Virus record (IMG/VR): IMGVR_UViG_3300016725_000002 | Span: 64,001-128,000 of that record | Strand: one strand, 5' to 3' | DNA: 64,000 nt | DNA from: a virus | Taxonomy: Duplodnaviria > Caudoviricetes | In this document: piece by piece, positions 13,421 through 55,270 of the stretch | Numbering within the stretch: position 1 is the stretch's first letter | Layout of the letters: the number at the start of each line of letters is the position of its first letter | Position numbers and translations under genes: made by a program | Notes under the pieces: generated by a model | Told to the model about the DNA's origin: nothing | The model's database searches: none | The model's input: only the letters and a program-made list of their open reading frames with translations

Positions 13421-13800
13421 GGTTTTTCTCCACTGTTTTTGGTTAGAAGTCTAATGACTTCATCTGAAACATTAATGTTTTTAATTTTAGCATTAGGCCT
13501 TAATTGTCGCCACAATTGGTACAAAATAGGGTCATTTTTACATGTGTATTCTTTACATGTTTTAGGTCGTATCTCATATATTGTACATCTGTTATCAGAG
13601 CCGAGAAACGGACAAACCAATCCCGGCCCCTTTTTCAATAATAATAATGTTTTACCATCCTTTACAAAAACATTAGCTATATCACTAATGTTTTTATTAA
13701 ACTGCGTAGCAACACGCTTGGCTTCTTCATATGTTAACTTAATCTCGCCAGCTACAACGCAGCATAGACCAGGACATGAATTGCAACGCTTTACTTGCAT
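13417..13800 (-). CDS. YkgJ-family cysteine-cluster (CxxCxxxCC) protein
   Basis: CNSCPGLCC...CPFL...CTIYEIRPKTCKEY. Confidence 0.85.
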   Translation of the reverse strand: MQVKRCNSCPGLCCVVAGEIKLTYEEAKRVATQFNKNISDIANVFVKDGKTLLLLKKGPGLVCPFLGSDNRCTIYEIRPKTCKEYTCKNDPILYQLWRQLRPNAKIKNINVSDEVIRLLTKNSGEKP

Positions 13801-14000
13801 TATAACTCCGATAATTCTCGCATTGCTTTAAGCATATTTTCCCAATTAGAATAGATAAGTTTGCTATTTTTCTTCATTCCAACGAATTTTTTAGCTCTTT
13901 TACTGATTATTTGGTATAACTTAAAGAACTCATTCTTTTGTTCTTCAGTAATACCTGAATCCTCAGATTTAGCTTCAATTTCAATATAATTGATTTTCAT
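13800..14000 (-). CDS. Small hypothetical protein with leader MKINYIEIEA
   Basis: 66 aa, GGAGG RBS. Confidence 0.6.
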   Translation of the reverse strand: MKINYIEIEAKSEDSGITEEQKNEFFKLYQIISKRAKKFVGMKKNSKLIYSNWENMLKAMRELSEL

Positions 14001-14008
14001 GATTCCTC

Positions 14009-14548
14009 CTATTTCCTAAAAGCATTAAAATCAACTCTTTTATTAAATACACCAGTACCAAAGTAATATCCAATTACAGTATCAAACTTTGCACTAGCAT
14101 ACCCAATAACTGTACCAACTAAACCTATTTGATTTACATCTAAGTTCTTAAATTGAGAAGAAAATACAAAGATAACACAAACAATAAAAATTATAGCTGT
14201 CGTAATTGCTAAAATAGCAGGGGTAATTTTATCTTCTTTTAATGATTTAATATATGCTAAATTAGCATTATCCTTGTCAGTATTTTGACTAACAAGTACA
14301 TCCATATTAATATTTAATTCGGTTAACTTATCAGTAACAATAGATTCAACATTCTTTAAGTTTTGAAGGTGTTCCGAAGAACAGTTATTAATGTTGGTTT
14401 GTAATGTTTCTTCAGAGGTATCTGTTGGAAGTTCAAGTGCTTTACAGACTTCGGCACGAACAAAACTATAAAGTATTGGACTTGTTAATGCTAACGCTGC
14501 CTTAGGTGCTACTGTAGAAATTGAATCTATCCAATTTTGTTGCCCCAT
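14009..14548 (-). CDS. Putative holin-like membrane protein
   Basis: Two C-terminal hydrophobic helices ending in TVIGYYFG. Confidence 0.6.
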   Translation of the reverse strand: MGQQNWIDSISTVAPKAALALTSPILYSFVRAEVCKALELPTDTSEETLQTNINNCSSEHLQNLKNVESIVTDKLTELNINMDVLVSQNTDKDNANLAYIKSLKEDKITPAILAITTAIIFIVCVIFVFSSQFKNLDVNQIGLVGTVIGYASAKFDTVIGYYFGTGVFNKRVDFNAFRK

Positions 14549-15289: not shown

Positions 15290-15535
15290 TCATTTTGAGA
15301 ATTTATTTCTCAACTTAGTTTTTACTAATTCAAATTTCTGTTTATCTTCTTCACTTAAATTAGAACCTGCCCTATTAACATAAAATGAAACGCGGCTTAT
15401 TGCCTGTTTTAAACTGGTAGATTTTTTAAATAAAAAATCAGCAATTTTAGTTGCTGATTCAGTAAAGAGTTTATCAGGTACATCAAGTTTAGATTTATAA
15501 CTACTTAAATTAGTGGAGACTGTAATGTATTTCAT
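15290..15535 (-). CDS. DUF3175-like protein with MKY leader
   Basis: AISRVSFYVNRAGSNLS...KLR recalls DUF3175 (SMLxFYINRAGKNL). Confidence 0.6.
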   Translation of the reverse strand: MKYITVSTNLSSYKSKLDVPDKLFTESATKIADFLFKKSTSLKQAISRVSFYVNRAGSNLSEEDKQKFELVKTKLRNKFSK

Positions 15536-15536: not shown

Positions 15537-15803
15537 CTACCTCCGGTATGGTTTACTTTTATTAAAGACTTTACCTTTAAATGAACGCTGCATGTGTTTA
15601 TGATGATCTGTATGACAACTAAAACATAAACTAATTAAATTGGATGGATCATTAGTCCCACCTTTACTGAGTTCTCGTTTATGATGTACATTTAAATATG
15701 TTGAATTAGGGGGAAACTCCCGAAAACATTCCTGACAAGTATAGTTATCTCGCTCTTTTACTTGTTGAGCAATTTCATTCCAATTATCAGGATAGCGAGT
15801 CAT
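15537..15803 (-). CDS. HNH endonuclease (small, McrA-like)
   Basis: RDNYTCQEC...VHH...GGTN..NL..LC..CH..HH. Confidence 0.9.
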   Translation of the reverse strand: MTRYPDNWNEIAQQVKERDNYTCQECFREFPPNSTYLNVHHKRELSKGGTNDPSNLISLCFSCHTDHHKHMQRSFKGKVFNKSKPYRR

Positions 15804-16345
15804 TATTTACCACTATGATAAAATTTACCGCTTGATTTTTTATCAGAACTCGATTCTTCTGTATCATCTTCTGAATCTGTATCTTCTTTATCTGCATCAG
15901 ATAAATGAATATCACCTTGAAATAATGCAGAGGCAGTAGCCAAAACTAAAATTGTAGCTTTGTTGTCTATTGCTTCTTCACCATTTTTCTCTACTTCTTT
16001 TTTACCTTCATCAGTCTTTTTAAATTTATCAGTAACTCGTTTACTTAAACCTTTAGCAGCTTCTATTTGTTTCTTTGAAAAACCTTTTAATGCATCTGTT
16101 CCACCTTTTACTTTATCCTTAAACTTTGATAATAAACTAGTTGATTTATCTACTACTTTATCTTGTTCTTTAGGTGTTAACTTAGTTAAATGTTCTGCGA
16201 CACGTTTATCAATTTTTTTATCAAAATGGGATAAAATCTTTTCTTCCATCTTACTAACATATGTTTTATTTCCGTTATTATTAACGTAGTATTTACCACC
16301 CCTAGGGCCAGTGTTCAACTTTAAGGCAACTACTACATATTTCAT
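15803..16345 (-). CDS. Basic protein with GPRGG-x-YY (basic adaptor-like) motif and MKY leader
   Basis: TGPRGGKYYVNNNGNKTYV; Lys-rich body, acidic tail. Confidence 0.6.
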   Translation of the reverse strand: MKYVVVALKLNTGPRGGKYYVNNNGNKTYVSKMEEKILSHFDKKIDKRVAEHLTKLTPKEQDKVVDKSTSLLSKFKDKVKGGTDALKGFSKKQIEAAKGLSKRVTDKFKKTDEGKKEVEKNGEEAIDNKATILVLATASALFQGDIHLSDADKEDTDSEDDTEESSSDKKSSGKFYHSGK

Positions 16346-16833
16346 TTAACTCTCCTAAATACTTTCTTTATAAACTGCTGTACTGTCAACTTCTTTGTTG
16401 CACTAGCAGTTAAATAACAAGATGTAGTATCATTTAGCTGGTAGCGTTTTAAATCCCATCTTTTATCAGTATTAGCGTTCTCAAATACAGAAAAATCTAA
16501 TAACATTACGCCATCAACATCTCGTATAGGAATAGCGTCATAAAAAGGAGTAAAATTATTATGAGTATCAACAGATGTAGGAGAATAAACATCTAAATCA
16601 TATAATACTTTATCAATTGTGAATCTAATACCACTTATTCTTGCAGGAAAGTAGAATGCAGTTATTGGGTTATTAATACTTGGACTGAATGCTACTATAT
16701 CGCCTATTGAGTATCGGGAAGGATAGTTTTTGTGAGGTAAATCAGTTTCTAATTCTTCTAATACATTAGAAAGTTTTTCAGAATCCTTAATATTATTTGA
16801 ATCTATAATTTCAGCAACAACTACATATTTCAT
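16342..16833 (-). CDS. Hypothetical protein, paralogue of 16830..17204, MKY leader
   Basis: Shares FSP...FPA[RK]I...FT..KVLYD...NNF.PFYD.IP...VD with neighbour. Confidence 0.7.
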   Translation of the reverse strand: MKYVVVAEIIDSNNIKDSEKLSNVLEELETDLPHKNYPSRYSIGDIVAFSPSINNPITAFYFPARISGIRFTIDKVLYDLDVYSPTSVDTHNNFTPFYDAIPIRDVDGVMLLDFSVFENANTDKRWDLKRYQLNDTTSCYLTASATKKLTVQQFIKKVFRRVK

Positions 16834-17204
16834 AATAAATCTTGTAACATCTTAGTGAAAGATGTAACTGAAAAAGTTATTTGCTTAGGATAAGATACTT
16901 TGGAAATAATAATACCTTTCTCTGAAAGAATATCATCAATTTCATTTACCATAATACTATCTACATTCTCTAACGGAATATTATCATAAAATGGATTAAA
17001 ATTATTATCAGAAGTAGCTAACTCTTTACATAAGAGGGAAATATCGTATAAAACTTTAGAAGGAGTGAATTTAACATTAACTATTTTGGCAGGAAAATGA
17101 GTACGTTTATCTTCAAAATTATTTAAATCCGGGGAAAATAATACAATTTGACCGGGTTTAAATCTCGCAGGAAAATCAGTATCTGCAACAGTTACATATT
17201 TCAT
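16830..17204 (-). CDS. Hypothetical protein, paralogue of 16342..16833, MKY leader
   Basis: Same shared motif; AGGAG RBS. Confidence 0.7.
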   Translation of the reverse strand: MKYVTVADTDFPARFKPGQIVLFSPDLNNFEDKRTHFPAKIVNVKFTPSKVLYDISLLCKELATSDNNFNPFYDNIPLENVDSIMVNEIDDILSEKGIIISKVSYPKQITFSVTSFTKMLQDLL

Positions 17205-17216: not shown

Positions 17217-18782
17217 TTATTTTTTCTTTGCTGGAAAATCTTTATATAATTTATTTAAATATTTTACATCATTTCCTGTAGAGAATCTTTCAACTATAAC
17301 TGAATTTAAATTTCCTTTCTTTTCTAAACAAGTAATAATTCTGTATACTGTAGTATTATACATAGATATGAATCTAAATAATTCTCTTACTTCTTTATTT
17401 TTAGCTTCACCTTCTAATTTGGATAATTTAGAAATTTTATATAAAGTAGGAGTTACTGCATATAAATAACCTGAAAATTTAGCATCCTTTATTACATTCT
17501 TAAAGAAACGACTGATTTCTAATTTATCTGTTAACTTTAATACTTTTTTAAATAAAGGAGTTTTAATAAGTTTAGGATTAAATTCATTTTCATATTCCTG
17601 ACGTTTCGCTTCTCGTCTTTTTATATTCCTAACATATGTAGAAATAATAAATTTATCACATTCAACATTTTCAGGTTGAGCTTCAATTCGCGTAAGTGAA
17701 GCATCCACAATAGGAGCAATACAGGATTCACAATTCTTTAAATTATCAACACTATTCAACAGAAGAGTAGCTGAAGTTTTAAACTTTTTGGGTAATATAA
17801 CATCTTTATCTAATGATAATCGTTTACATTCATATTTAAGTTTAGGGAGTTTAGTACCCATAACATGTAAATCTTTACATGAAACATACTGAGGGTAATA
17901 TTTACTATCTATAATAACTATATCACCATTTAATAACTTTTTAGGTGTTAGTTTATTTTTAACCAAATCAAGAACAGACTTATTTAAGTCTATTGAATCT
18001 AACTTAGAAATATCATCTATAGTATAAAATTTATCAAAACTATAAATATTTAAATTATCTTGGTTAGAAGGCATCTTTGGTTTTAATGTATTTAAAAAAT
18101 CTCTAATTTCAGATACATATTTTTCAGGTACTGTATTTGCTTTACCTCGTATTTGTGAAATAGAATTGTTTTTTATTTCATACTGAACTGTAACATGTGG
18201 AATATTATTTTCATCTCGTAAACTGTATATTTTACACCTTCCATTTTTAACATATGGATAATAACCACCAACGCAGTGACCCATCAGTTCACCTTCACGT
18301 TTAAGTGATTTTTCACCTGTAATATCAACCCAAGTATAAGTACCAAGAGTTAAATAAGTTTTTATTCCATCTTCTTGAATGCTTTTAGCTTTTTTACTAT
18401 TTTTAGCCATAGCTTCATCCCAAGCTTTAACTTTATCAAGAGCTTGAGGAATACTAATTTTAGATATATCTGATTGTTCAGTATTTAAATAATCTATTAC
18501 ATGACTCCAATAATTTTTAAGATCAGTATTTAATATTAATAAATCTAATACTTCACCACGTTTAACTGCTTCTACCATCCATTCAGGACTATCTTTTGAA
18601 GTACGTTTAACTGGTTTAGATTCACCATTATTAATTAAATACTTTCTTAAATTTGAATTTATCCAAGTTTTAACATTAGCATTTAATGCTTGATTAGATA
18701 AATCATCTAAGAATGTTTTTAATTCATCAAGATTAACAATATTTTTTGCAATCATTTCCACTTTTGCTAATACATATCTCAT
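17217..18782 (-). CDS. PcfJ-like domain protein
   Basis: LKREGELMGHCVGGY...IYSLRD...PHVT...QIRGKAN. Confidence 0.8.
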   Translation of the reverse strand: MRYVLAKVEMIAKNIVNLDELKTFLDDLSNQALNANVKTWINSNLRKYLINNGESKPVKRTSKDSPEWMVEAVKRGEVLDLLILNTDLKNYWSHVIDYLNTEQSDISKISIPQALDKVKAWDEAMAKNSKKAKSIQEDGIKTYLTLGTYTWVDITGEKSLKREGELMGHCVGGYYPYVKNGRCKIYSLRDENNIPHVTVQYEIKNNSISQIRGKANTVPEKYVSEIRDFLNTLKPKMPSNQDNLNIYSFDKFYTIDDISKLDSIDLNKSVLDLVKNKLTPKKLLNGDIVIIDSKYYPQYVSCKDLHVMGTKLPKLKYECKRLSLDKDVILPKKFKTSATLLLNSVDNLKNCESCIAPIVDASLTRIEAQPENVECDKFIISTYVRNIKRREAKRQEYENEFNPKLIKTPLFKKVLKLTDKLEISRFFKNVIKDAKFSGYLYAVTPTLYKISKLSKLEGEAKNKEVRELFRFISMYNTTVYRIITCLEKKGNLNSVIVERFSTGNDVKYLNKLYKDFPAKKK

Positions 18783-20470
18783 TATTCCTCTCCTTGATTC
18801 ATTAAGTCAAATACCCGCTTAACTGGTTTAGGTGGTTCTGCACCAGTTTTATCAAAATAATCTTTCATTAAGTCAGAATCAATATAACTCTTAATTGAGT
18901 TAGAGGGATTATGACCTAATTTTTTAGCTACCTCTTCTACAGCAGTATTAAATGTCTTTATTGGGTCTTTTTTACCACGATTGCTTGTTATATCTGTAAA
19001 AATACGGTTTGCATGGAATTTACGGAATCCATGTGCAGTATCAGGAAATCCTAATGAAGTTAAATATTTATTTATATAGGTTGTGCTGACAGGTGTATCA
19101 CCTTTTACGGAGAAAAGGTATTGATTTGCTTTTCGCATATTCTTTAATATTGAAAGAGCTTTAACTATTTTTTCGTTTGTTATCACATGACGTTGATGGA
19201 CATTCTTTTTACCATTATATGAAATAATAGCTTTTCCATCTTTAATTACTACGAATTTAGACAATAAATTATGTATTCCATATACACCATTTGTTTCACT
19301 TTCACCAGTATTACCAATACGTCCAGCAGTGTCGTCAAGAACAGCAGTAACTAAAGCCGCAATTGATTTAGTAGTTAATTCTTTAGAAAGGATTGGTTCA
19401 AAATCTTTAGTATATTGTTTTCTAAGTTTATTTATATCTAATGAATTAGCAAGTTTTGCAGCTTTTTCATATTTAGTTTTTAAACTACGTTTACGATAAT
19501 CCTTTGTATAAAAATGATATTTATTATTATTGATATTAACTTGAGGAAATCCAGTACAATAATAGGTATTATCTTCCTTGGTATAATCAGGATTCATCTT
19601 AATATCAGAACCGGGAATATTTTCTAGTTCTTTACCATATGAAGTATAGTAGTTGAATAAAATTGTTGGTGAAGTGGATAATGCAACTTTGCCTTTAAAT
19701 CCTGAATCAATAGGATTAGGTATTCCTAATTTTTTTAATATGGTTCCTGCTACTTTTACATCTACTAAATCATAACCCTGATTATCAAATTCATTTTCAA
19801 CAACTTGTTTTGCTAATTTCTTATTATCATTTAATGCTTTACGATATTCTTTATAACGTACAGGACTCTTTTTTAATCTTTCAATTTGTTCATCTGATGG
19901 AGTAGTAGTTTTAAATATACGCATTAATACCTTATTATATAATGTTAAATTATTCTTATAATTTTGTGAGGTTTCATCAGAGGTTAAACCTGTAATACTT
20001 TTTAATAAATTACGAATACGAATATCTGGTAAGTATCGTGAGAGAAGTGAAATATTTTTAATCATATTTTCGGATAATTCATCCGCGTTATAAATAGCTA
20101 ACATTTTATTTATTTCTGTAACTGAATCCCTATTAAGTTTTTTAAATTTTTGTTTGTTAGATTGTAAAACTTCATTTAACTCTTGATATATGTCATCATT
20201 TGTTAATAATGCTGGGCCGTATTTAAATAAAGTTTTTAATTTTTTAGTGCGGGTGCATTTGATTTCATCTAGTTGTTCTATAAAATCTGTTAAATAATTA
20301 TTGTAAGTGGTTTTATCTATCTTCTTAAATAATGAATGATTAAATTCCATCTCATGATATAGTTCTAGCATAGGTGGAAGAACTATACTTAAAAATGATA
20401 ATATTTTTAAACCATCTGTATCAAATTTTACCATATCTTGTAATGAAGCATCTAATTCAATTAATTTCAT
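18782..20470 (-). CDS. DNA topoisomerase IB with long N-terminal extension
   Basis: Catalytic residues in order: GRIGN (R), YNGKKNV (K), HGFRKFHAN (R), LGHN (H), KSYID (Y). Confidence 0.85.
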   Translation of the reverse strand: MKLIELDASLQDMVKFDTDGLKILSFLSIVLPPMLELYHEMEFNHSLFKKIDKTTYNNYLTDFIEQLDEIKCTRTKKLKTLFKYGPALLTNDDIYQELNEVLQSNKQKFKKLNRDSVTEINKMLAIYNADELSENMIKNISLLSRYLPDIRIRNLLKSITGLTSDETSQNYKNNLTLYNKVLMRIFKTTTPSDEQIERLKKSPVRYKEYRKALNDNKKLAKQVVENEFDNQGYDLVDVKVAGTILKKLGIPNPIDSGFKGKVALSTSPTILFNYYTSYGKELENIPGSDIKMNPDYTKEDNTYYCTGFPQVNINNNKYHFYTKDYRKRSLKTKYEKAAKLANSLDINKLRKQYTKDFEPILSKELTTKSIAALVTAVLDDTAGRIGNTGESETNGVYGIHNLLSKFVVIKDGKAIISYNGKKNVHQRHVITNEKIVKALSILKNMRKANQYLFSVKGDTPVSTTYINKYLTSLGFPDTAHGFRKFHANRIFTDITSNRGKKDPIKTFNTAVEEVAKKLGHNPSNSIKSYIDSDLMKDYFDKTGAEPPKPVKRVFDLMNQGEE

Positions 20471-21347: not shown

Positions 21348-21791
21348 TTAACAAATTTGAGGTTCATTTAATAAATTAGTCTTTAAATAAGCTTCTTGAC
21401 TTTCAACAGTAGCTTCAAATAAGCTAGATATATTTTTATTATCTTGTGTAATAGTTGGAGCTATATTTGAATATGTAATCATATTTTGAATATCCTGAAT
21501 AACTGTGCTTTTTCTCCAAATATATTGTTTAATTTCAGTTAATGCATATATTACGAAGGCATTTAAATCTTTAGTTCCATTTTCATATTCAAAATAATCA
21601 CAAATTGAACCTTGGTCATCACTCAAACGTAAGGTAAATACATATTTATTTTCTATTGGAGTTAAATTTATAATCAAACACCCATTAGACCTAGGGGAGT
21701 ACAAAGGAAGTCTTAAAAAAGATTTTCCTTTGTACTCCACTTGATAAAATGAAGTGTTTTCGTTACGCGCAGTAACGAAAACGTAGTTCAT
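21348..21791 (-). CDS. Hypothetical protein with leader MNYVFVTA
   Basis: 147-aa ORF, TAATG coupling with upstream gene. Confidence 0.6.
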   Translation of the reverse strand: MNYVFVTARNENTSFYQVEYKGKSFLRLPLYSPRSNGCLIINLTPIENKYVFTLRLSDDQGSICDYFEYENGTKDLNAFVIYALTEIKQYIWRKSTVIQDIQNMITYSNIAPTITQDNKNISSLFEATVESQEAYLKTNLLNEPQIC

Positions 21792-22526: not shown

Positions 22527-23135
22527 CTATTTTAATTTTTTCCACATTACTGCTCCTGCTTCATCTATATTTTGAGGTGAGCAATCAACGTCAAAAACAT
22601 AAGATATTAATCTACTATATAATTGTTTAAATTTATCTTCATGTCCATAACTTAACGCTTTAACATCTTTGAAGATTTGTTTATTTTGTTCACTATGTTC
22701 AGCAGTTAATGATAGAAATTTATTATGCTTAATAGCTAAAGTTGTTATGCATAAATGGGTATATTCATGAAGTAACGCAGATAATGTGGATTTATTAGGT
22801 AAAGATAGCATTAAGCCATCTTTAGATGTTTGATAACCTAACATTACTAATAATAAATTATTTATATAAATAGCTTGCGCTCCATCAATATTGCGTTCTT
22901 GTTGAATTTCATTAAACACATCATTAAACCATGCATAACTTTTGGGTATACGCAATAATTTAAAGTTTTTTAGTTCTTTAGCATATTGTTTATTTAAATA
23001 TCGGGTGAAATTGTTAGTTACTATAAATTGGTTAGCAGTACATGGAATAACTCGTTTACTCAATGAAACACAAACATCAACTATTTCTTTATACTTATTT
23101 CTATTAACTGCCAAAGTTATGTATTTCATGCCCAT
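22527..23135 (-). CDS. HExxH zinc metalloprotease (SprT-like) with MKY leader
   Basis: LLHEYTHL...YGHEDKFK; alternative start MKYITLA at 23129. Confidence 0.65.
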   Translation of the reverse strand: MGMKYITLAVNRNKYKEIVDVCVSLSKRVIPCTANQFIVTNNFTRYLNKQYAKELKNFKLLRIPKSYAWFNDVFNEIQQERNIDGAQAIYINNLLLVMLGYQTSKDGLMLSLPNKSTLSALLHEYTHLCITTLAIKHNKFLSLTAEHSEQNKQIFKDVKALSYGHEDKFKQLYSRLISYVFDVDCSPQNIDEAGAVMWKKLK

Positions 23136-26508: not shown

Positions 26509-26522
26509 ATTTTTCTCCTCCT
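26483..26522 (-). repeat. 40-bp RBS + MLELLNYNI repeat (second copy 27467..27506, 38/40 identical; weaker copies at ~28170-28207 and ~30728-30760)
   Basis: Direct comparison; both mismatches are synonymous third positions. Confidence 0.9.
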
Positions 26523-26538
26523 TAATTCCTTTAATTCA

Positions 26539-27492: not shown

Positions 27493-27508
27493 ATTTTTCT
27501 CCTCCTAT

Positions 27509-28195: not shown

Positions 28196-28224
28196 ATTAT
28201 TCCTCCCTAATAGCTACTTTTTAA

Positions 28225-28231
28225 TAAACTG
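28225..28231 (-). promoter_or_regulatory. CAGTTTA motif (candidate late promoter element)
   Basis: Between a terminator and the MLELLNYN gene array; context ATTAGCAGTTTA. Confidence 0.45.
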
Positions 28232-28238
28232 CTAATAC

Positions 28239-30275: not shown

Positions 30276-30343
30276 AAATCCTACTCCTTAATATAAATTT
30301 GAATCCATTCATATAGAATGTTAAATATTTTTTGTTAAAAAAT

Positions 30344-30385: not shown

Positions 30386-30751
30386 TTAAATTTGAATTAA
30401 ATTTACAGTTCCGTTACCGCCATCACCACCAAAAATACTACTAGAAAGTTTTCCACCTATTCCACCCGTTGCTGTCATAGAAAGCATTCCATTTACAGTT
30501 AAATCACCTAATATATTTAAATATAACCCCTTACAACGTAAAGTCGGTGTAACCATATGTCCTGTATTAACGGTAAAATTGTTATATGTTTTAACTACTG
30601 GGTTACCATCAAGAGTTGAGGTAAACTGGTCATGTGCTATATCACCCGTTGATGAAAAATCACCTAAATTTGAAGTAAAACTAAAAATAGACTCATAGGT
30701 TGAAAGATAATCAGGAGAGAAACTTGTATTATAATTAAGTAGTTCTAGCAT
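30386..30751 (-). CDS. Internally deleted paralogue of 25459..26508, MLELLNYN tag (possibly pseudogene)
   Basis: Near-identical FSFTSNLGDF...LSMTA block fused in frame to the last ~27 aa; 228 aa shorter. Confidence 0.75.
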   Translation of the reverse strand: MLELLNYNTSFSPDYLSTYESIFSFTSNLGDFSSTGDIAHDQFTSTLDGNPVVKTYNNFTVNTGHMVTPTLRCKGLYLNILGDLTVNGMLSMTATGGIGGKLSSSIFGGDGGNGTVNLIQI

Positions 30752-31248
30752 TTGTCCTCCAGTTCAAGTATAAATTGTTCTATCCAAGTTGTATGCTGTT
30801 TATCAAATTTATAAGTTTTCTTTGCAATTGTATTATAAAATTGTCTAAGTTTTAATACATTATGTGTAGTAATATATTCCATTGCTTTCCAGTCACTAAT
30901 CATATGTGCAATTTGGGCTTTGGTCATTTTATTAACATCTGAAAAGTATTCAGGATGATGGTCATTGTGTTGATAATGATATTTCCAAGCATCATCAGCT
31001 AATTTTTCAATTTCAGTAGAAGGGTAAGGAATATGTAAATTATAGTGAGCATTTATCCAAATATATCCAGAATATTCGGGTTCAATAAATTTAGAAGCAT
31101 CATGTTCTTTTACATCATTTAACAGATTATTTGCAATACTAGGATAGAGTTTTGCAATCATTTTTGCAAAATGCTGAACTAGTTGTATATGACGCTTAGT
31201 TCTTACTATAAAATCTTGTTCGTATGTATCAATTTCAGTATACTTCAT
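30745..31248 (-). CDS. HD-like protein (DUF5662-like) with MKY leader
   Basis: RHIQLV..HDASKF..E..HYQHNDHHPEYF..MISDW. Confidence 0.75.
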   Translation of the reverse strand: MKYTEIDTYEQDFIVRTKRHIQLVQHFAKMIAKLYPSIANNLLNDVKEHDASKFIEPEYSGYIWINAHYNLHIPYPSTEIEKLADDAWKYHYQHNDHHPEYFSDVNKMTKAQIAHMISDWKAMEYITTHNVLKLRQFYNTIAKKTYKFDKQHTTWIEQFILELEDKC

Positions 31249-31260: not shown

Positions 31261-31584
31261 TTATAAACTGACTAATGACTGAAACCGTTTAGGAAGAAAT
31301 TTACTAAGTTTAGGTGAAATACTTATCTTATTGCATGTAAAACTATCTGGTGTAACAATAAATATATCTTCAGTTTTATACTTATCTCTAACCCATTTTG
31401 GATCTGAATTATTCACATCAATTATCTTATTTAAGGTCAATGTATTAATAATCCAATTCCTTAAATTAGACTTAACCCATTTTCTAACATTAAGATTAGT
31501 TGCTCGTTCTTCTAATTTATTTAAATATTCTATTGCACTATTTGAAAAATATACATTTCTAGCTAATATTTCAACATACTTCAT
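31261..31584 (-). pseudogene. Truncated paralogue of the PcfJ-protein N-terminus (MKYVEILARN)
   Basis: First 29 bp identical to start of 32012..33430; NVRKWVKSNLRNWIIN matches NVKTWINSNLRKYLIN of 17217 ORF; lacks the PcfJ domain. Confidence 0.6.
31264..31270 (-). promoter_or_regulatory. CAGTTTA motif (candidate late promoter element)
   Basis: Context ATTAGTCAGTTTA, about 16 nt before ATG 31248; overlaps the last codons of the truncated ORF. Confidence 0.4.
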
Positions 31585-32012
31585 AATTGAATACACTCAA
31601 TATTATTTTCAATTAGAAAATCTATCCCAGAAACATCTCTATCATATCGTTCAACATATTTTACACTTGATATTCCTGCTGCAAAGATTATCTTAGCACA
31701 ATGAATACAAGGTGAATGTGAAACATATAATGTACAATTATTAGTTGCTATTCCATGTTTAGCACAAAAACTAATTACATTTTGTTCTGCATGTAATTCA
31801 TATCTTACTGAAAAATTATGATGAAGCTGTGAAAAATTTTCATCAGCATATTCAAAAATATCACAACAATGTGTGTTACCAGAAGTAACTCCATTTTTAC
31901 CAGTTGCTATAATTCTATCGTCTTTAACAAGTAATGCAGCAACCTGAACTCTTTTACATGTAGAAGATTTTTGAATTATATTTAAGTGCTCCATAAATAT
32001 TTCTTCTTTCAT
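31581..32012 (-). CDS. dCMP deaminase
   Basis: STC.R.QV.A, HAEQN, SPCIHCAK. Confidence 0.93.
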   Translation of the reverse strand: MKEEIFMEHLNIIQKSSTCKRVQVAALLVKDDRIIATGKNGVTSGNTHCCDIFEYADENFSQLHHNFSVRYELHAEQNVISFCAKHGIATNNCTLYVSHSPCIHCAKIIFAAGISSVKYVERYDRDVSGIDFLIENNIECIQL

Positions 32013-33430
32013 CAGTTTTCCTCCAATTTATTTACTGATATTTCAGATAAATTTGTTATATGACAATTACGTTTTAATATTAAACGTCTAATTTTAGACT
32101 TTTTTGGTAAGGTAATATTACCTGAGATATTTAAACTTAAAATATCTAAATCTAATGGTTTTTCAAACCATATTTTATTTTGTCCTATAATAAATAATTC
32201 TTTACATATAAAATCATAAGCAGATTTAAATGTACAATTATTAATAAGTATTACATTTCCAGTTACATTAGATATTTTATCAATATGACAGTTATTAAAT
32301 GCTGCAACTTTTGTACATTTCATCTCTGCAAGAAATTTACTATCATGAATAGTAATACTTTCTCTTACTTCAAAATTACCTGTAATTTTACAAGATTCAA
32401 ATTTACCTAAGTAAATAAGACTATCTTGAAAATCAATACTAGAGTTATCGCAATTCATTCTAGGTATTTTTGAATTTATTGTAGTTATATTACAATTATT
32501 GCAAGATAGATCATTAATATATGTTTTATTTGGAATGATAATATTTTTATTATTATCAAATTTAACAGAAACAACTCGTAATCCTTGAACAGATTTATCT
32601 GCTTCAATTATTCGTTTAAAATCTTTATCAGATATATGTCCTTCATATTCTGCATGACTTGGTAGTTTATCTAAACTATATAATTTATCATCAATTGTAA
32701 TTGCTCCTAATCTTGATACATCTAATGAATTAATTTCCATAAATGGTATTCTTTGTGAATTGATTAAATCTAAAATATACGACATATAATTAACTGGAAT
32801 TGTATTGTTTTTTCCTTTTACTTGACGTATTGCATCATCTGTAACTTCAACTGTAACATGGGGTTTATTTTGGGAGTCGCGTAAACTATAAATATAAGTC
32901 ATACCTTCCCTAACTTGTTCCCAATAATCACCAACACAATGGTTCATTATAGAACCTTCATATTCCAAACCCAATTTACTATTAATTCTAACCCATTTGT
33001 AGTTATTTGAATACTGAAATATCAACGCATAATCATTTGACCCAGCTTCATCAGATTTTTTAAACGACAAATCCCATTCCTCAATCTTTTTCTTTAATTG
33101 AGGAATGGAAAGACGGGTCAAATCCCTAGTTGAAGGTAAGGTGTTAATATAATCCATCCAATGTTCAAATTCATCTATAGATAAAGAAAAATTAGGTAAT
33201 ACAATTTCCTTCCCTTCATTTAGTGCTTTTATTACCCAATTCGGATATGAAATACTTTTATTTTTTAATTTAAATACTCCATCATAATCTTTTATGATAT
33301 ATCGTCTAAAAACAGTATCAAACCATTTTCTTCCATTATCCTGCCTAAGTTTTTTCCGAAAATCTTTCATTTGATTTTCAGCACTTAAATCAAAATACAT
33401 GTTTCTAGCTAATATTTCAACATACTTCAT
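32012..33430 (-). CDS. PcfJ-like domain protein with MKY leader
   Basis: EGSIMNHCVGDY...IYSLRD..NKPHVTVE...QVKGKNN; C-terminal low-complexity beta-repeat region. Confidence 0.8.
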   Translation of the reverse strand: MKYVEILARNMYFDLSAENQMKDFRKKLRQDNGRKWFDTVFRRYIIKDYDGVFKLKNKSISYPNWVIKALNEGKEIVLPNFSLSIDEFEHWMDYINTLPSTRDLTRLSIPQLKKKIEEWDLSFKKSDEAGSNDYALIFQYSNNYKWVRINSKLGLEYEGSIMNHCVGDYWEQVREGMTYIYSLRDSQNKPHVTVEVTDDAIRQVKGKNNTIPVNYMSYILDLINSQRIPFMEINSLDVSRLGAITIDDKLYSLDKLPSHAEYEGHISDKDFKRIIEADKSVQGLRVVSVKFDNNKNIIIPNKTYINDLSCNNCNITTINSKIPRMNCDNSSIDFQDSLIYLGKFESCKITGNFEVRESITIHDSKFLAEMKCTKVAAFNNCHIDKISNVTGNVILINNCTFKSAYDFICKELFIIGQNKIWFEKPLDLDILSLNISGNITLPKKSKIRRLILKRNCHITNLSEISVNKLEEN

Positions 33431-37650: not shown

Positions 37651-39396
37651 CTACATTTTAATGAGGTTTGGTTTAATGTTATTAGCAAATTTTAGTATCT
37701 GACGTACATCATTAGGAGTAACTTTAACATTAGGCGGCATATTACGTTGAATATAATCTTTTAATAGACTTGTATCTGTTATAGTTGCAATATCCTTAGC
37801 TCTCTGAACATTAGTCTGTAATTTACCAATATCAGCCTTTTTTACAGAACCATACATGCCGCTTCCTTCGCCATCATCTTCTTTTGGTGGAGGCGAGATT
37901 TTTGCAATATTATCATTCCATTCTTTTATCTTTTTTCTATATTCTAAGTCTTGATTAATTGAATCAAGTAGTACATTCATATTTACACCAGCATATTGTG
38001 CAATTATACCTAATGGTAAATTCAATCCAAGTTCTTTAGCTTGTGTAGCTAAGTTAAGAGCGTTACTATCACCACGACTTTCTAATTCTTTACTCCATTT
38101 TAACTCAGGAATTTGATATATAGCAGCTTCTGCTAAGTTTCTACTACCTGTAATAATTGCACGCTGCACAGTTTTTTCATCTCTTGCAGCATGATTACTA
38201 GTTGTATCATATCTAACATTATGGTTTAATTCAGCTTTAGTACGTCTACGAAACTTATGATATTTAGCAAGAAGCAAAAATACTTTATCATATAAAACAG
38301 CTCTAGTTAATGTATCACGAAAATTCTTTAGATTCTCCATAAACATTGTCATTGAGTTATCTTGGTTTGCATAGTTTGTATCTGCACCCCAAGATTCACT
38401 CAAACCTAAAGCACGAAGTTTAATTTGGGTGAATCCATCACGTTCATTACTTACTGACCAAAAATCAGAACCACTTCTAACTTCATTTGTACTAACATCA
38501 GGTCGTGTTACGACAATAGCACCTTGTGGGTCTCTATCTGCATTTGAAAACATAGAGGCAACGGCTTGATATTGGTCATCTGTAGGTTCCCAAGTATCTG
38601 AACCGATTGTAACGTGTAAAATACCACGTTGTCTACGCATACTGGCAAGTAATGTACCACGGGTTAAGGCTTTTTCCATAATCCAAATAGGTAATACACG
38701 AGTAAGATAACTAAAAGTTTGTATACCGGGTAAATTAGAACGATTCAACACAATAGTAGTTAATTGATCTAGAGGTATTGTTCCCTTCTTTAATTTTTCC
38801 ATTAAATCGGGACTAATTTCTTTCATTGCTTCCTTATCTCGTTCATCTTTAGATGAAAGAAATGCTTTCATCTCTGGAGAAACTTTTAAATCAACTTTAG
38901 GATCATAACCAATCATAGGAATAGGAGTTATATCACAAGTATCGGGATTATATACAATACAGTCTGAAAAGATACCACGAGTTTTATCAAAAACAAGTGA
39001 ACCAATTGATACACCTAATACTAAATAACAAGTGCTAAGATACGTCATTAAACGTACAAGATTTAATTCACTTAAACAATCTTCATATAATTTTTGTACT
39101 GGTTGATCTTTAATACCAATTAAAGAATAACTACTCCAAGGAAGACTAGATAATTGGTCAATGGCTGGGCCACTAACAGAATCCATCATATAAATTTCAC
39201 GATACATTTTATATAATGTATTTTTATCCTTTAAATTGACAAAACCTTCTAATAATGAATAGGATAAATCAGATTGTATTACTGTCCCACCTGCCCCGAA
39301 TCCAGCAGAAGAAGGACTTGATGATAGAGAGCTGCCCGTCATAGAGATTTTGCTCGATACCGAGCCAAGTATTGCCTGTTTATTCAGTGAAAACAT
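37651..39396 (-). CDS. Portal protein
   Basis: 581 aa; YREIYMMDSVSGPAIDQLSSLPWS, KLRALGLSE, NYAN...FMENL..FRD.LT pattern of portal proteins. Confidence 0.75.
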   Translation of the reverse strand: MFSLNKQAILGSVSSKISMTGSSLSSSPSSAGFGAGGTVIQSDLSYSLLEGFVNLKDKNTLYKMYREIYMMDSVSGPAIDQLSSLPWSSYSLIGIKDQPVQKLYEDCLSELNLVRLMTYLSTCYLVLGVSIGSLVFDKTRGIFSDCIVYNPDTCDITPIPMIGYDPKVDLKVSPEMKAFLSSKDERDKEAMKEISPDLMEKLKKGTIPLDQLTTIVLNRSNLPGIQTFSYLTRVLPIWIMEKALTRGTLLASMRRQRGILHVTIGSDTWEPTDDQYQAVASMFSNADRDPQGAIVVTRPDVSTNEVRSGSDFWSVSNERDGFTQIKLRALGLSESWGADTNYANQDNSMTMFMENLKNFRDTLTRAVLYDKVFLLLAKYHKFRRRTKAELNHNVRYDTTSNHAARDEKTVQRAIITGSRNLAEAAIYQIPELKWSKELESRGDSNALNLATQAKELGLNLPLGIIAQYAGVNMNVLLDSINQDLEYRKKIKEWNDNIAKISPPPKEDDGEGSGMYGSVKKADIGKLQTNVQRAKDIATITDTSLLKDYIQRNMPPNVKVTPNDVRQILKFANNIKPNLIKM

Positions 39397-39407: not shown

Positions 39408-39713
39408 TTATAATTTAGCGACTATTGATTTTAAATATGCATCAAGATTATCATCATTTATACCTGTATCATATAATTTACCAATAAATTCATTAAATTT
39501 TTTATTACTTCTAAATAATCCCCAAAATACATCCCATCTACAGCGTTTAACTGAATCATTACCAATTTTTTGAGTAATATACTGTTTCTCAATATCTTTA
39601 TATGATGTAATACTTTTATTTTTAATTAATTTCTTTATATAATCTTTAATAAATTTTTCTAATTTATTATAATCATCTGTAGAAATCTTTTTAGAAATAA
39701 CAATATACTTCAT
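39408..39713 (-). CDS. Hypothetical protein with MKY leader
   Basis: 101 aa; RCRWDVFW...LYD.GINDDNLD. Confidence 0.6.
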   Translation of the reverse strand: MKYIVISKKISTDDYNKLEKFIKDYIKKLIKNKSITSYKDIEKQYITQKIGNDSVKRCRWDVFWGLFRSNKKFNEFIGKLYDTGINDDNLDAYLKSIVAKL

Positions 39714-48400: not shown

Positions 48401-49259
48401 GTTTATATCCAGTATCACTTAGTACAAATGAGTCACCAGTTATACAACGCTGTCCGGCTAATCCAACTAACGTGTTATAGTTATTATGCTCATGTTTAAC
48501 AATTGCTTCATATCTTGATTGCCCACATTTAGGACATTTACCATTAACATAAAATACAGTTCTATCGAGTATTTCATCAACCGGAGTGTTAACTTTAACT
48601 TTATTACGAATAAATTTTAAATCAGAACATTTGGTACAATACGCTCCAAAATAATCTAATGATATTTGAAGCTGTCTTGGAAATAAGTTAATACCCATAA
48701 ATTTAGGATCAATAATAAATTGAACCGGGTTGGTACTTTTAGGTATATCTTGTTCATTAATTAATTCAAAAACTCTTGGGTCATATTCACTGTTAATAAT
48801 TCTTGAAACTAATGCTTCAGGACTCCAATCATTTGGTTGTTTTTCAGAATCAAAGTTAGCACCTAATGCATTTTTATCAGCTTCAAGCAATCTTTCATCT
48901 TCATATTCACTAAGTAATTTTGAAGCTTCCTTATCTAAATTTTTTAATTTAATAGGCTTCTTTTCTAATTTTACTTTTTTATCTTTTACTTTTTTTACTT
49001 TTACTTCTTCTTGCTTTTGTAGATAAAGGTCATAATCTGGGAATCGTGAATAATCAGGTAGTTTTGCAGAATCTAATTGTTTTTCAAAATTAACACATAC
49101 ATGATATATACCTATCTTTTTTCCTAAAGTATGACATGCTTTAACATGTAAACATCTTCTACACCCAGCTCTATTATCAATAAATGATGAACAGTGTTTT
49201 TTATTACCTTTACAAGTATATAATCGTAATAACTGGGCACAATTTTCACAATTTAACAT
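45486..49259 (-). CDS. terL: Terminase large subunit with two inteins (about 795 aa after splicing)
   Basis: LFPRQ, Walker A GQR|SGKS, LRGR|TRIFESMDE Walker B, YISSP, LPTWEFNP, nuclease AIDCG..NSFA, FDRWQS, SDDI. Confidence 0.9.
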   Translation of the reverse strand: MLNCENCAQLLRLYTCKGNKKHCSSFIDNRAGCRRCLHVKACHTLGKKIGIYHVCVNFEKQLDSAKLPDYSRFPDYDLYLQKQEEVKVKKVKDKKVKLEKKPIKLKNLDKEASKLLSEYEDERLLEADKNALGANFDSEKQPNDWSPEALVSRIINSEYDPRVFELINEQDIPKSTNPVQFIIDPKFMGINLFPRQLQISLDYFGAYCTKCSDLKFIRNKVKVNTPVDEILDRTVFYVNGKCPKCGQSRYEAIVKHEHNNYNTLVGLAGQRCITGDSFVLSDTGYKRITNCISDLLYIPDDLGKHVRYENFEKPSDFYTYENSPVITIYADGLNYKISGTPNHPIKCISGSKCEFVNLSDIKVNDLIPIEWGTNVFGTIDDLSSLESILTSSKECQIKYLSNLENIDGIISNTEDFIRMLSYMLINLGIEFNILSPNSIKIYSTLPYTGIKWVKVSKIIQEQNQTVYDYTVPKYHRFIANGFISSNSGKSIFHGILAACILQQYLCLPNPVTFMKQLNSVTFTMTFVGLRFQDAYDNLWRDFYANITNSPWFTMYNNFLRDEGIRLGTELIKLKDTFAVYTNKRISIVPAGPDKRKLRGRCITGNTLITTTTGSINASDAKHLINGKVIDRGNEFKITGYEKQQLKKEVVKCYFGNGITLQVTTDHRIPCYNEGLIEAENILDKYVMCQLDTRFSEKFNLNILKSTRENILSYIRLRRVSPNKFKDSSFILQQAILKFCNCFRFKSHIYVTNYDANILNKHLGFPPVEFSQEDCSAYLIPGTNVYTKSELNKLYNIEVPEQYLQYIDKNIIFVKCTKQVNIGFKTVYDIEVDSPEHLFAANSILVHNTRIFESMDEVGWFTGKDGSITLDADEVAIALENSLKTVRNESEKLVELYPDVPNAHAIYISSPRSKLDKIMRLYKQSKVIDSMYGFKLPTWEFNPNFTRASFKDDYAKDAVAAEANFGANPPFGENLYIRSPASIISVLSNKRNVLEVANYKLHKDSLGAYLRYPIIKTRPHQIPSCLAIDCGYNDNSFAISILHFINRYNEETEEFIKIPACSGIIEIQPEEGIALSFNKIYETVISKIIEAFNIQLVCFDRWQSIDLRQRIFDDFGIDTIQYSVNMQDFTDLKTNILSENFILPKCEQDIKNIVSLDTELAVLTKDKPVSHLIIQLITSKDNGRIITKGDETSDDILRSVCLGHAILIDEDYAEFFDTDASDSELNDKIGTIGVISSGSSNGKNDSGTRIISGIGCIA
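46719..47459 (-). mobile_element. Mini-intein 2 in TerL (247 aa)
   Basis: CITGNTLI...TTDH...VYDIEV...FAANSILVHN|T; no intact LAGLIDADG. Confidence 0.92.
47802..48446 (-). mobile_element. Mini-intein 1 in TerL Walker A (215 aa)
   Basis: CITGDSFV...GTPNHP...VYDYTV...FIANGFISSN|S; endonuclease remnant only. Confidence 0.92.
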
Positions 49260-52157: not shown

Positions 52158-53257
52158 TAAGCAGCCTCAATTGGGCCGATAGTAATAAATTTTAATTTAT
52201 CTGTTGCTTGTTTAAACAAAAAGTATTTAAAATCTCCACCAAATCTTAATGTAGATGATTCATCAATTAAAGAACACATAGATAATGCACTGTCCACAAA
52301 TAATTCTGGAATACCAAATTTTACAGAATCACCAATATCATTACTTAAAACTTTACATTTATCTTTTGTACTACCAATAGTATTTTCAAGAGAAAGAATC
52401 ATTTTCCCATTTTTTACATGAAAATCAACAATACCATTACCATTAGCAATAGAACGAATACTATCAAGTACATTCTGTACCTGCTTCAATTCTAATTTAA
52501 TTTCACCTTCCATTAAACTTGAATTAGACATTAATTCATTACATGCTTCAATAAGACCAGTAAATTGAGTATCAATAAGAGTAGGTAATGAAAGAGTCAT
52601 AGAATCACTTTTAATAAGTAGCATTTTGTCAGTTAGAATAATTTCAAGTTCACTTTCAATCATTGATAATGCAAGTTTGAATTTTTCAATAGGAATACAC
52701 AATTCAAATTCATCTGAACCTAAAGACTGCGAGAATGCATATTTTGCGAACATATTTGTAGTAGCAAATGTAAGAGCCATTTCTTTCTTTGAATTTGAAA
52801 GTAATGCATAACCTGTATTATTAGGGTCAGGGGACATAAATTGAACAAGTTCCAAATTATTCTTAAAAGTTCCAACTTCTTTAGATTTGATTTTAAGTTT
52901 CATTTCATTATCAGAACAATCAGGTTCTTCTAAATCTTCCGGGTTAATTTTAAAGGTTACATACAGTTCCATTTTAGTACCTGCAATAACATTAAGAATA
53001 TTTTGTTCTTTATTAAAAGAACATTCAAGTGTATTATTACGAAGTTTAAACAATGTTTCAAATACTTCTTGCTGGATTTTAAACTTACCTGTTTTCTTTA
53101 CTTCAGCTGGAACAAATTTATGAATATAAGTATCAACATTGATAGTCAACCATAAACCTTCTTTTTCAACTTCTACAACTAATTCTGTAAACTTACCGGT
53201 AAGTTTTAACATACTATTGTAAATTGACTGTAATGATTTTTTGTCTACAGTAAACAT
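52157..53257 (-). CDS. Probable DNA sliding clamp (Pol III beta-like)
   Basis: 366 aa with three repeated ~120-aa alpha/beta domains, acidic, FATTN where ATDG is usual; replication context. Confidence 0.6.
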   Translation of the reverse strand: MFTVDKKSLQSIYNSMLKLTGKFTELVVEVEKEGLWLTINVDTYIHKFVPAEVKKTGKFKIQQEVFETLFKLRNNTLECSFNKEQNILNVIAGTKMELYVTFKINPEDLEEPDCSDNEMKLKIKSKEVGTFKNNLELVQFMSPDPNNTGYALLSNSKKEMALTFATTNMFAKYAFSQSLGSDEFELCIPIEKFKLALSMIESELEIILTDKMLLIKSDSMTLSLPTLIDTQFTGLIEACNELMSNSSLMEGEIKLELKQVQNVLDSIRSIANGNGIVDFHVKNGKMILSLENTIGSTKDKCKVLSNDIGDSVKFGIPELFVDSALSMCSLIDESSTLRFGGDFKYFLFKQATDKLKFITIGPIEAA

Positions 53258-53275
53258 TTTGTGGTTCTCCTTTGG

Positions 53276-55270
53276 CTATTTATATTGTTTCAAAAATTGT
53301 TCTTTAGTTAAAACTTTTACTCCAAGTTCTTTAGCTTTTGCTACTTTTGAAGATGTAGAATTTTTATCTTTTATTAAAAGAATAGTAGTCTTTGAGTTCA
53401 CACTTGAACCCTCTGTACCACCATTTTCTTTTATATATTTAGATATATCTGCATCTCTAAAACCAGTAAATACAATAATCTGGCCTTTCAACTTGCTAGA
53501 TTTAAGCCGAGTTGGCTTTGGTAATATAAACGTAACTTTATTTGAAAGTTTCGTCAAGAATATTTTAAACTTTTGTAAACTTTTTACAAAAGAAGAAGCA
53601 AGTATGTCAGAAAAACCAAATAAGTCTGTTACCTTTGATACTTCTTCTTTTGTACCTTTCCATTTCAATACATCAGGATATGCTTTAATTATTTGTTCTA
53701 ATCTACCTACACCTAAGTCACCATTAAAAAGTGTACTTGCATACATTAAATCAGCTAAATTCACATCTTTAATTGCTTCTTGGATTTGGTCTACAATTTT
53801 ATTTGCTTGAGTATTTTGAATTCCTGGTAATTTTTTTAATTGATTAGGTTTAGCATCAATAATTTTATTAATTGAATTAAATCCATTGTCATATAAGTTA
53901 GCAAAAGTTTTACCAGAAATAGTCTTTACGCCTAAAGACCTAAAGAAATTTGTAATACGCATTACTTTTAATTCATCATTATCTTTAGTATTGACTAATT
54001 TAATATCTACATGAGTATCATTCCAAACATAGTCTTCAGTTGGCATATCAGCTTTAGTAGATTTAACTACACTTTGAATATAGGGTATTACATCTTGACT
54101 ACGAATAACTTCAAGTAATGAACCCTTACCAATTTTATTATCATAAATAAATGCAGCATTATGTGCTGTAGCTCTTGATACATTAACCCCACCTAATTTC
54201 AGTGGCCCGCCCTTTTTAGGATCTTCAACTAAAATAACAGGTGTTAAATATCCATATTTACTCAACTGCCATATAACTTGTTTTACTTTACCAACCCTTG
54301 TTTCAAGAATTGAATTATCTTTAAATGCTATAGAATTTTTAGGATTATCTATAGAAGGAGCTTCATATACATCTTTATTAGCAACTAACCCATCAATTTC
54401 AAAATTACTTGTAGCTTTTCTTTTTTCAAAGAGTTTTGATATTTTTTCAGCAGTAGGATTCTTCATTATTATCCAATCAGGCGTATCAAATTTTAAAGAA
54501 TCTAAAAACTTAAAACCTGCACTTGGTTTAAGTTTAGGTTCTATAACAGTATAAGCAACAAACTTTACATGTTGTAATGCTTTAGAAACCTTACCACCAT
54601 TTAACAATCCACTCATCATACTTCGTGGATTAGAAAAATCTTTTTCATATTTTTTGAATAATGATTTAGGTATTATAAGCTCACCGCGAACTTTATATGC
54701 CTTTTTAACTTTTAATTGCTTTTTTAAATCTGGAATGTGTGGAATTAAATATGATACATCTTGTCCAGTAATACCATCACCTCGAGAATATAAAGTAACA
54801 TTACCTTTCCCATCATTAACAATCCCACCGGACATTCCATCCATCTTATTACTCAATACTATGTAATCTACTCCATTTAACCATTTATCAACAGATTCGG
54901 GATGTTTTTTATTTTGAGATGCCATTGGGAATGGTAATTTAGTCATTCTGCTACTTGCGTTTGAAGCAGGTTTTTTAGGGATAGGTGCACCTACTTTAAC
55001 CAAGTATTTATTATTAGGAGATTTATCTCTAAGTATATCTACTAATTTATCATATTTTGCGTCAGTAATTATTGTTCTGTATAATTCATATACTTTAGGA
55101 GTAAGAGTTACTCCCTCATTATAATAGGCTTCATCGCATACCTTTAAAAAGGATACTAATTGTGATATTTTCCAATCTTCTACAACATTCAATCCATATT
55201 TTTTTATTTCTCGTATCATAGATAAAGCATTATCAGGTTGAGTAAATGCTTCCACTTCAACTAGTTTCAT
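53276..55270 (-). CDS. ligA: NAD-dependent DNA ligase
   Basis: AYYN..ITDAKYD, KMDG, SRGDG..GQDVS, VRGE, NPR, IDGLV, AFK, RATAHN, VIP, HhH, C-terminal BRCT (VFTG..GG..SVNSKT). Confidence 0.95.
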   Translation of the reverse strand: MKLVEVEAFTQPDNALSMIREIKKYGLNVVEDWKISQLVSFLKVCDEAYYNEGVTLTPKVYELYRTIITDAKYDKLVDILRDKSPNNKYLVKVGAPIPKKPASNASSRMTKLPFPMASQNKKHPESVDKWLNGVDYIVLSNKMDGMSGGIVNDGKGNVTLYSRGDGITGQDVSYLIPHIPDLKKQLKVKKAYKVRGELIIPKSLFKKYEKDFSNPRSMMSGLLNGGKVSKALQHVKFVAYTVIEPKLKPSAGFKFLDSLKFDTPDWIIMKNPTAEKISKLFEKRKATSNFEIDGLVANKDVYEAPSIDNPKNSIAFKDNSILETRVGKVKQVIWQLSKYGYLTPVILVEDPKKGGPLKLGGVNVSRATAHNAAFIYDNKIGKGSLLEVIRSQDVIPYIQSVVKSTKADMPTEDYVWNDTHVDIKLVNTKDNDELKVMRITNFFRSLGVKTISGKTFANLYDNGFNSINKIIDAKPNQLKKLPGIQNTQANKIVDQIQEAIKDVNLADLMYASTLFNGDLGVGRLEQIIKAYPDVLKWKGTKEEVSKVTDLFGFSDILASSFVKSLQKFKIFLTKLSNKVTFILPKPTRLKSSKLKGQIIVFTGFRDADISKYIKENGGTEGSSVNSKTTILLIKDKNSTSSKVAKAKELGVKVLTKEQFLKQYK

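Follow-up and report, generated by a model that had tools for sequence, protein, structure and literature searches.

A short N-terminal peptide common to unrelated proteins of an uncultured relative of phage PaBG: a possible capsid-loading address tag

Why should proteins that have nothing else in common begin with almost the same short peptide? The question is raised by a 64,000-nucleotide stretch of viral DNA (hereafter the window, bases 64,001-128,000 of the single 161,660-bp IMG/VR virus record IMGVR_UViG_3300016725_000002), for which a preliminary description had listed 14 N-termini of the type M-K-Y-[VI] and suggested that they form a capsid-targeting signal. All 14 were found at the starts that had been reported, on the minus strand, which carries nearly all genes of the window. 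The record has a guanine-cytosine (GC) content of 30% and a CheckV completeness of about 59%, and 190 open reading frames (ORFs) were called greedily across its whole length.

We found that the N-terminal peptide, referred to here as the tag, is much too frequent to be a product of chance. The pattern M-[KRN]-[YLI]-[VIT]-x-[VIL] was matched by 22 of the 190 ORF starts in the whole record (about one gene in eight), as compared with 0.39 N-terminal matches expected from the amino-acid frequencies of the proteome (about 50-fold enrichment), and when the proteins were scanned over their full length the pattern turned up 24 times, 22 of them at the N-terminus. Enrichment over shuffled N-termini, a comparison suggested in the preliminary description, was also evident: when the real N-termini were shuffled within columns, a conservative procedure that retains the AT-rich start bias and in which the tagged genes themselves feed the column frequencies, the number of matches averaged 3.45 and reached at most 11 in 5000 trials. 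The strict pattern and three looser variants together gave 25 tagged genes, 14 of them in the window, and a further truncated tagged copy lies at the start of the contig, beyond the 25. After collapse of paralogues by all-against-all BLASTP, 14 independent families remained for the strict pattern and 16 when the three looser variants were included, namely one nine-member PcfJ-like family, one pair and 14 singletons. With regard to the two small paralogue groups mentioned earlier, the pair was recovered as such, whereas the larger group turned out to be the nine-member PcfJ-like family when the whole genome was considered.

With one representative per family, information content was high at positions 2-4 and 6, moderate at positions 5 and 8, and at background from position 9, in agreement with the earlier statement that these proteins have nothing in common after approximately residue 10. 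The most conserved residue after M1 was Y3. The consensus can be written as M-K-Y-[VI]-x-[IVL]-x-[AST], lengthened to end in A-R-N in several families, and Glu occurs within the tag at position 5 only, in about half of the cases. The tagged genes of the window, in window coordinates, are the following:

13800..14000, minus strand: ORFan of 66 residues, variant tag with two extra residues after K2 followed by Y-I-E-I-E-A, no Pfam or PHROG match
15290..15535, minus strand: tagged protein of 81 residues, DUF3175 in its C-terminal half (PF11373, 5e-10)
15803..16345, minus strand: tagged Lys-rich protein of 180 residues with an acidic tail, no family match
16342..16833, minus strand: tagged ORFan of 163 residues, paralogue of the gene at 16830..17204
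16830..17204, minus strand: tagged ORFan of 124 residues, paralogue of the gene at 16342..16833
17217..18782, minus strand: PcfJ-like protein of 521 residues, M-R-Y-V first, then a 3-residue insertion, then the conserved segment of the family
18782..20470, minus strand: type IB topoisomerase (TopIB) of 562 residues (PF01028), weak tag M-K-L-I-E-L
21348..21791, minus strand: tagged ORFan of 147 residues, extended form of the tag ending in A-R-N
22527..23129, minus strand: tagged HExxH protein of 200 residues, HExxH at residues 121-125, no Pfam or PHROG match
30745..31248, minus strand: tagged DUF5662 protein of 167 residues, His/Asp-rich and all-helical
31261..31584, minus strand: tagged truncated copy of the PcfJ-like N-domain, 107 residues
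32012..33430, minus strand: tagged PcfJ-like protein of 472 residues with a C-terminal beta-solenoid
39408..39713, minus strand: tagged ORFan of 101 residues, immediately upstream of the portal gene
53276..55270, minus strand: NAD-dependent DNA ligase of 664 residues, weak tag M-K-L-V-E-V, a doubtful member

For the HExxH protein, Shine-Dalgarno spacing is better for the start at 23129 than for that at 23135. TopIB and the ligase, both named as bearers in the preliminary description, do have the starts reported for them, but only in the weak M-K-L form.

The tag is selected at the peptide level, because synonymous codons are free within it and the upstream DNA is not common to its bearers. Lys is encoded by AAA in 15 cases and AAG in 6, Tyr by TAT in 15 and TAC in 6, and five codons (GTA, GTT, GTG, ATT and ATA) are in use at position 4; genome-wide, AAA accounts for 77% and TAT for 87%, so that the codons of the tag are equally or more varied. 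Apart from a Shine-Dalgarno, the 40 nt upstream of the tagged genes have nothing in common. This codon variation bears out the earlier claim that the codons differ and that conservation lies in the peptide. A nucleotide-level or cassette explanation could be ruled out, since neither codons nor upstream DNA are shared. A simple bias toward ATG-AAA-TAT starts, raised earlier as a possible source of the motif, does not explain it either, as indicated by the shuffles, the codons and the counts in three relatives. With one loose pattern, 26 of 190 starts were tagged here, as compared with 3 of 269 in G001 (GC content 41%), 3 of 163 in G002 (50%) and 10 of 233 in G003 (34%), seven of the last ten coming from one nine-member paralogue family.

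Based on sequence comparison, the phage is a distant, AT-rich, uncultured relative of the PaBG group, because its portal is 32% identical to the portals of Pseudomonas phage PaBG and of Erwinia, Dickeya and Vibrio jumbo phages, and its gene order is that of PaBG (terminase, portal, TopIB, scaffold-like gene, structural gene, capsid, sheath). We examined how the tag is distributed among homologues in such phages. The TopIB orthologues P0002 and P0004 (44-55% identity) have the canonical M-K-Y form, and in one tagged orthologue the tag has been added ahead of the segment that aligns with the N-terminus of TopIB of this phage. An orthologue at 35% identity has an untagged 27-residue extension instead, and TopIB is untagged in G002, G003 and PaBG, the complete genome of the last containing no tag. 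Close PcfJ-like orthologues are tagged, and distant ones (P0014-P0017) have long untagged N-termini. In the DUF5662 family, only the query and two others among 150 representatives are tagged (147 untagged), and nearly all alignments begin at query residue 7 or later; one tagged representative sits in an 87.7-kb contig of a related phage, together with tagged PcfJ-like and other genes. The L011 orthologue of the DUF3175 protein is also tagged, and its G003 homologue has a 53-residue untagged N-terminus instead. For the ligase, the orthologue of G002 probably starts M-K-L-S-E-V, and those of G001 and G003 are untagged.

G003, whose capsid protein is 51% identical and which shares 59 genes with this phage, has TopIB, DUF3175, DUF5662 and ligase orthologues that are all untagged, and carries the tag on a different nine-member family. 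The start of that family is M-[KREQ]-Y-[VIT]-x-[IFV]-...-A-R-[RK]-N-P; it has no Pfam match and is unrelated to PcfJ by hhalign. Its nine paralogues lie at G003:C1 106,826-117,638, directly after two SPASM radical-SAM genes, and three large tagged copies flank the portal of another phage, represented by L018, L054 and L055 (about 39 kb; copies at L055 832-4329 and 8313-9857). In this L018 phage, and in L011, L012 and L019, the tag is also found on further unrelated genes. Orthologues in relatives thus differ in the tag while their bodies stay homologous: within a sub-lineage, gain and loss of the tag do not depend on the protein body that carries it. The sequences also show that it is needed at the extreme N-terminus. 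Two PcfJ-like family members have a 3-residue insertion after M-[KR]-Y-V, these four residues remaining the extreme N-terminus, and P0004, too, keeps M-[KR]-Y-V first despite an insertion.

The surroundings of TopIB in more distant relatives offered two further observations. In a relative with a GC content of 51%, the gene after TopIB (L007 7541-8362) encodes a PARP-like ADP-ribosyltransferase with the tag-like start M-K-L-V-D-V, which recalls the packaged Alt protein of T4. In the 233-kb relative with a GC content of 41% (L015 / G001:C1 ~25,700-33,500), most of the consecutive genes beside TopIB, which have no BLASTP similarity, start M-K-[IL]-[DN]-[LV], and these starts may be a lineage-specific counterpart of the tag.

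Structure models were obtained for two tagged proteins. The AlphaFold model of the DUF5662 protein, built on a 69-sequence alignment, is an all-helical domain with a mean predicted local distance difference test (pLDDT) score of 95.7, in which the first 10 residues form a low-confidence helix extension (pLDDT 75, as compared with 96-99 for most later blocks) and fall outside the family profile. The model of the PcfJ-like protein at 32012..33430 (12 sequences) has a mean pLDDT of 85, and residues 1-7 are below 50, even though the alignment shows no variation at M1 and hardly any at Y3. Thus, in the two models the tag appears as an exposed short linear motif and not as part of the fold. That its residues are conserved yet unpacked suggests a linear motif that binds something else. 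Foldseek searches of the PDB with the PcfJ-like model yielded weak matches only, in which the beta-solenoid resembles polysaccharide lyases (best E = 0.018). An integral first beta-strand of each fold, considered as an alternative, is ruled out for the two modelled folds, one tag being disordered and the other a helix extension; the beta-strand character ascribed to the tag earlier was therefore not recovered.

The tag is restricted to the minus strand, which also encodes the capsid, portal, sheath and fibre proteins: it is found on 25 genes there and on none of the 32 plus-strand genes (Fisher p = 0.0096). Tagged genes adjoin the portal both here and in L055. The main reference genes are listed below:

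Just left of the window: tail sheath
3522..4577, minus strand: major capsid protein, untagged (phrog_2522, 4e-60)
4603-5265: virion protein of 220 residues
5287..6537, minus strand: scaffold-like protein of 416 residues, two genes upstream of the capsid gene, with zinc-ribbon-like CxxC pairs, an acidic tract and a helical C-terminus
12107-13420: fibre-like protein
37651..39396, minus strand: portal, untagged (phrog_16240, 3e-112)
45486-49259, minus strand: large terminase of 1257 residues

A DnaB-like helicase and a clamp-like protein were also identified in the window. The earlier observation that DnaB, clamp, large terminase and fibre proteins are without the leader holds, and it extends to the capsid, sheath and portal proteins. 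The median isoelectric point (pI) of tagged proteins is 8.9, versus 6.5 for the rest (p = 0.003; p = 0.012 with one protein per family). Recognizable bearers are TopIB, nine PcfJ-like proteins with variable beta-solenoids, the DUF3175 and DUF5662 proteins and, in weak form, the NAD-dependent ligase; further bearers include the HExxH protein, the Lys-rich protein and a 372-residue protein with a SprT-like lead only. To judge from TopIB, the SprT-like lead, the HExxH protein and the Lys-rich protein, the cargo looks DNA-related. Tagged genes are mostly lineage-specific: ten tagged singletons belong to no PHROG family, and most tagged proteins have no Pfam match. In the PcfJ-like paralogues, a conserved N-domain (signature H-C ... 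Y-S-L-R-D ... P-H-V-T-V-E) is joined to a C-terminal beta-solenoid that varies greatly from one paralogue to another. Proteins of the PcfJ-like type are common among SPO1-like and other large phages, and our literature search yielded nothing of use on phage PcfJ.

Nucleotide comparison with the phage collection brought up no match, and neither TopIB as a single query nor a degenerate DNA pattern of the PcfJ-type tag found a relative or a match, respectively, in IMG/VR. No multisubunit RNA polymerase domains were present in the record, which was checked for the idea of a phage nucleus. The terminase aligns to its relatives in three blocks (residues ~3-271, 483-600 and 844-1254) and would therefore contain two large insertions, possibly inteins or homing elements; in the L018 phage, an intein/LAGLIDADG insertion interrupts the portal. 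The small HNH endonuclease gene at window 15537-15803 has counterparts near TopIB in several relatives, directly upstream of it in L007-L009 and one or two genes off in L011 and L012.

What, then, might the tag do? Our tentative proposal, to which we would give somewhat less than an even chance, is that it is an address tag for loading proteins into the capsid, analogous to the capsid-targeting sequence (CTS) of phage T4. During late gene expression, proteins that are otherwise unrelated, most of them accessory and many of them basic or active on DNA, would be docked by the tag onto one shared receptor of the head under assembly, for example the scaffold-like core or the portal, and would then be enclosed with the DNA and delivered at infection. 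The destination (the capsid interior), the receptor and the delivery to the host are what we infer. The head interior is favoured because the bearers are DNA-related and basic, because tagged genes are adjacent to the portal, because a PARP-like protein in a relative has a tag-like start, and because of the T4 precedent. The 416-residue scaffold-like protein is a candidate receptor only. Its gene is syntenic with PaBG gp82-gp81-gp80, and it contains two zinc-ribbon-like CxxC pairs and a long Asp-rich tract; its N-terminus is a short hydrophobic segment ending in A-N-S-S, and the orthologues in G002, G003 and PaBG start similarly. In a broader and more doubtful version of the proposal, a portable tag of 8-10 residues would load at least 16 families (including TopIB, putative DNA-protein-crosslink proteases, an HD-like hydrolase and nine PcfJ/beta-solenoid proteins) for co-injection in PaBG-related huge phages, without a T4-type protease site, and would be an independently arisen CTS-like system with a much larger cargo.

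Several points weigh against capsid loading. No tagged protein matches a PHROG virion family, and the record is only about 59% complete. The TopIB and ligase of this phage carry just the weak M-K-L form. Both here and in G003, tagged clusters (two in all) lie near SPASM radical-SAM genes. Moreover, the C-terminus of nine tagged proteins is a beta-solenoid, and such a fold would suit external spikes as well.

Tag removal by a protease is not part of our proposal. The preliminary description had suggested cleavage after the Ala; however, positions 9-12 contain no conserved Glu or other residue (A-R-N occurs in some families only), positions 7-8 are only loosely small residues, and searches for S77/S78 head proteases (PF03420, PF04586) gave no match in the record (~59% complete), in G001-G003 or in the complete PaBG genome. 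The cleavage step was not adopted because there is no conserved cut motif after the tag and no S77/S78 protease is detectable. On the other hand, virion proteins of PaBG are proteolytically processed (PMC7412058), and therefore a maturation protease exists in the group. The PaBG paper lists 14 virion proteins and is silent on whether TopIB is among them. In general, the earlier analogy with a T4-type address tag agreed with our results in that the motif is a transferable peptide-level signal on unrelated proteins, kept in relatives, absent in distant homologues, unpacked in the models and encoded on the strand of the structural genes; its cleavage and beta-strand components were not supported.

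Other roles for the tag have to be considered. Tagged genes are interleaved with tail-fibre genes, and the PcfJ-like beta-solenoid has a weak resemblance to polysaccharide lyases, so the tag could instead be an external docking plug that attaches interchangeable proteins, in particular the nine PcfJ-like/beta-solenoid proteins, to a tail, baseplate or fibre adaptor. A second short N-terminus, M-L-E-L-L-N-Y-N, on four proteins of the fibre region suggests that short plugs are in use. These four proteins have different bodies (window 25459-26508, 26539-27492, 27728-28195 and 30386-30751, all minus strand), the codons of their common start vary synonymously, and the one at 26539-27492 is homologous to the C-terminal part of fibre-like paralogues at 33468-37633; M-L-E-L-L-N-Y-N itself could be a fibre or baseplate docking peptide. 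However, TopIB, the DUF5662 His/Asp hydrolase-like protein, the SprT-like lead and the Lys-rich protein make little sense outside the capsid, and the likeness to lyases, with its best E of 0.018, is weak. We consider an external plug unlikely. It is similarly improbable that the tag serves as a handle by which some phage enzyme, for example a SPASM radical-SAM protein, recognizes or modifies its bearers at residues such as K2 or Y3. Among published enzymes, anSME/AtsB comes nearest to this role. Radical-SAM genes number approximately 18 in the genome, the radical-SAM operon is immediately followed by the tagged cluster at genome 27.7-34.1 kb, the nine-member M-K-Y family of G003 stands directly after two SPASM homologues, and the strong conservation of Y3 would fit such a role. 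Nevertheless, L011, L012 and the ~39 kb of the L018 phage are rich in tags and have no radical-SAM Pfam match on any called gene, and most tagged genes here are 6-20 or more genes away from a radical-SAM gene.

The tag may also have no targeting role at all. It would then be an N-terminus that does well in this host because it aids expression, early elongation or folding, or because it resists N-terminal degradation. The motif is short, Lys at position 2 is a common start in bacteria and phages (in untagged genes too), and Lys-Tyr after the start codon reportedly favours translation in Escherichia coli. Such an effect would be hard to reconcile with the fact that the capsid, sheath and portal genes, which are the most highly expressed, are untagged, as are all plus-strand genes, that codons are unconstrained and positions 4, 6 and 8 are also selected, and that the G003 orthologues, at similar GC content, do without the tag; we think it has a small chance of being the explanation. 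An even less probable view is that the tagged proteins have no common function, the tag having begun as the native start of one expanded family and having reached neighbouring genes when 5' ends recombined. PcfJ-like genes do make up nine of the 25, and nearly all tags of G003 belong to a single family. But upstream DNA and codons are not common to the tagged genes, what is maintained across orthologues at 44-55% identity is a pattern and not one sequence, and where insertions have occurred the extreme N-terminus again has the tag.

If the tag does serve loading, the injected proteins of an uncultured huge phage, likely counter-defence and DNA-care factors, would be predictable from sequence alone. 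It would also imply that the T4 strategy, in which many cargoes bear one short address, is widespread and evolved more than once, each time with another sequence. For the packaging of foreign proteins, a minimal tag of 8 residues would be of practical use. Should the tag be an enzyme handle or a docking plug instead, it would still define a set of proteins with a shared, testable fate.

Finally, we compared the tag with known systems that direct proteins into phage heads. No description of the tag itself was found in the literature. The CTS peptide of T4, M-K-T-Y-Q-E-F-I-A-E, resembles the consensus found here bar one residue, and in both cases a peptide of about 10 residues at the N-terminus is all that diverse, often basic accessory proteins (IPI-III and Alt in T4) have in common. 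Packaging of T4 IPIII requires no more than its first 10 residues, of which residues 4 and 7 are the most important (PMC9026906); targeting thus resides in the first residues, as do the conserved positions 3, 4 and 6 of the tag. The set of bearers of the T4-type CTS varies between relatives (PMC3012670). In contrast with T4, bearers are far more numerous here (16 families, 25 genes), the terminal (L/I)-x-E cleavage motif is absent, no S77 (gp21-like) protease was detected, and the head genes are of PaBG type and not of T4 type; moreover, packaging is known for T4 and is a proposal for the tag. In phage P1, an N-terminal segment of DarB suffices to send the protein or a reporter into the capsid (PMC9024508), but this signal is 30 residues long and was described for one protein, with no motif common to many. 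In the giant phages SPN3US and phiKZ, numerous proteins are loaded into the head, and certain paralogues have N-termini in common (PMC5694885); their propeptides, unlike the tag, do not form a single short motif, most of them exceeding 100 residues, and a gp21-like protease removes them at an A/S/G-x-E-type site. Because the terminal protease site and the T4-type protease and core features were not found, we do not file the tag as a member of the T4 CTS, and by analogy we suggest that it would work like one.

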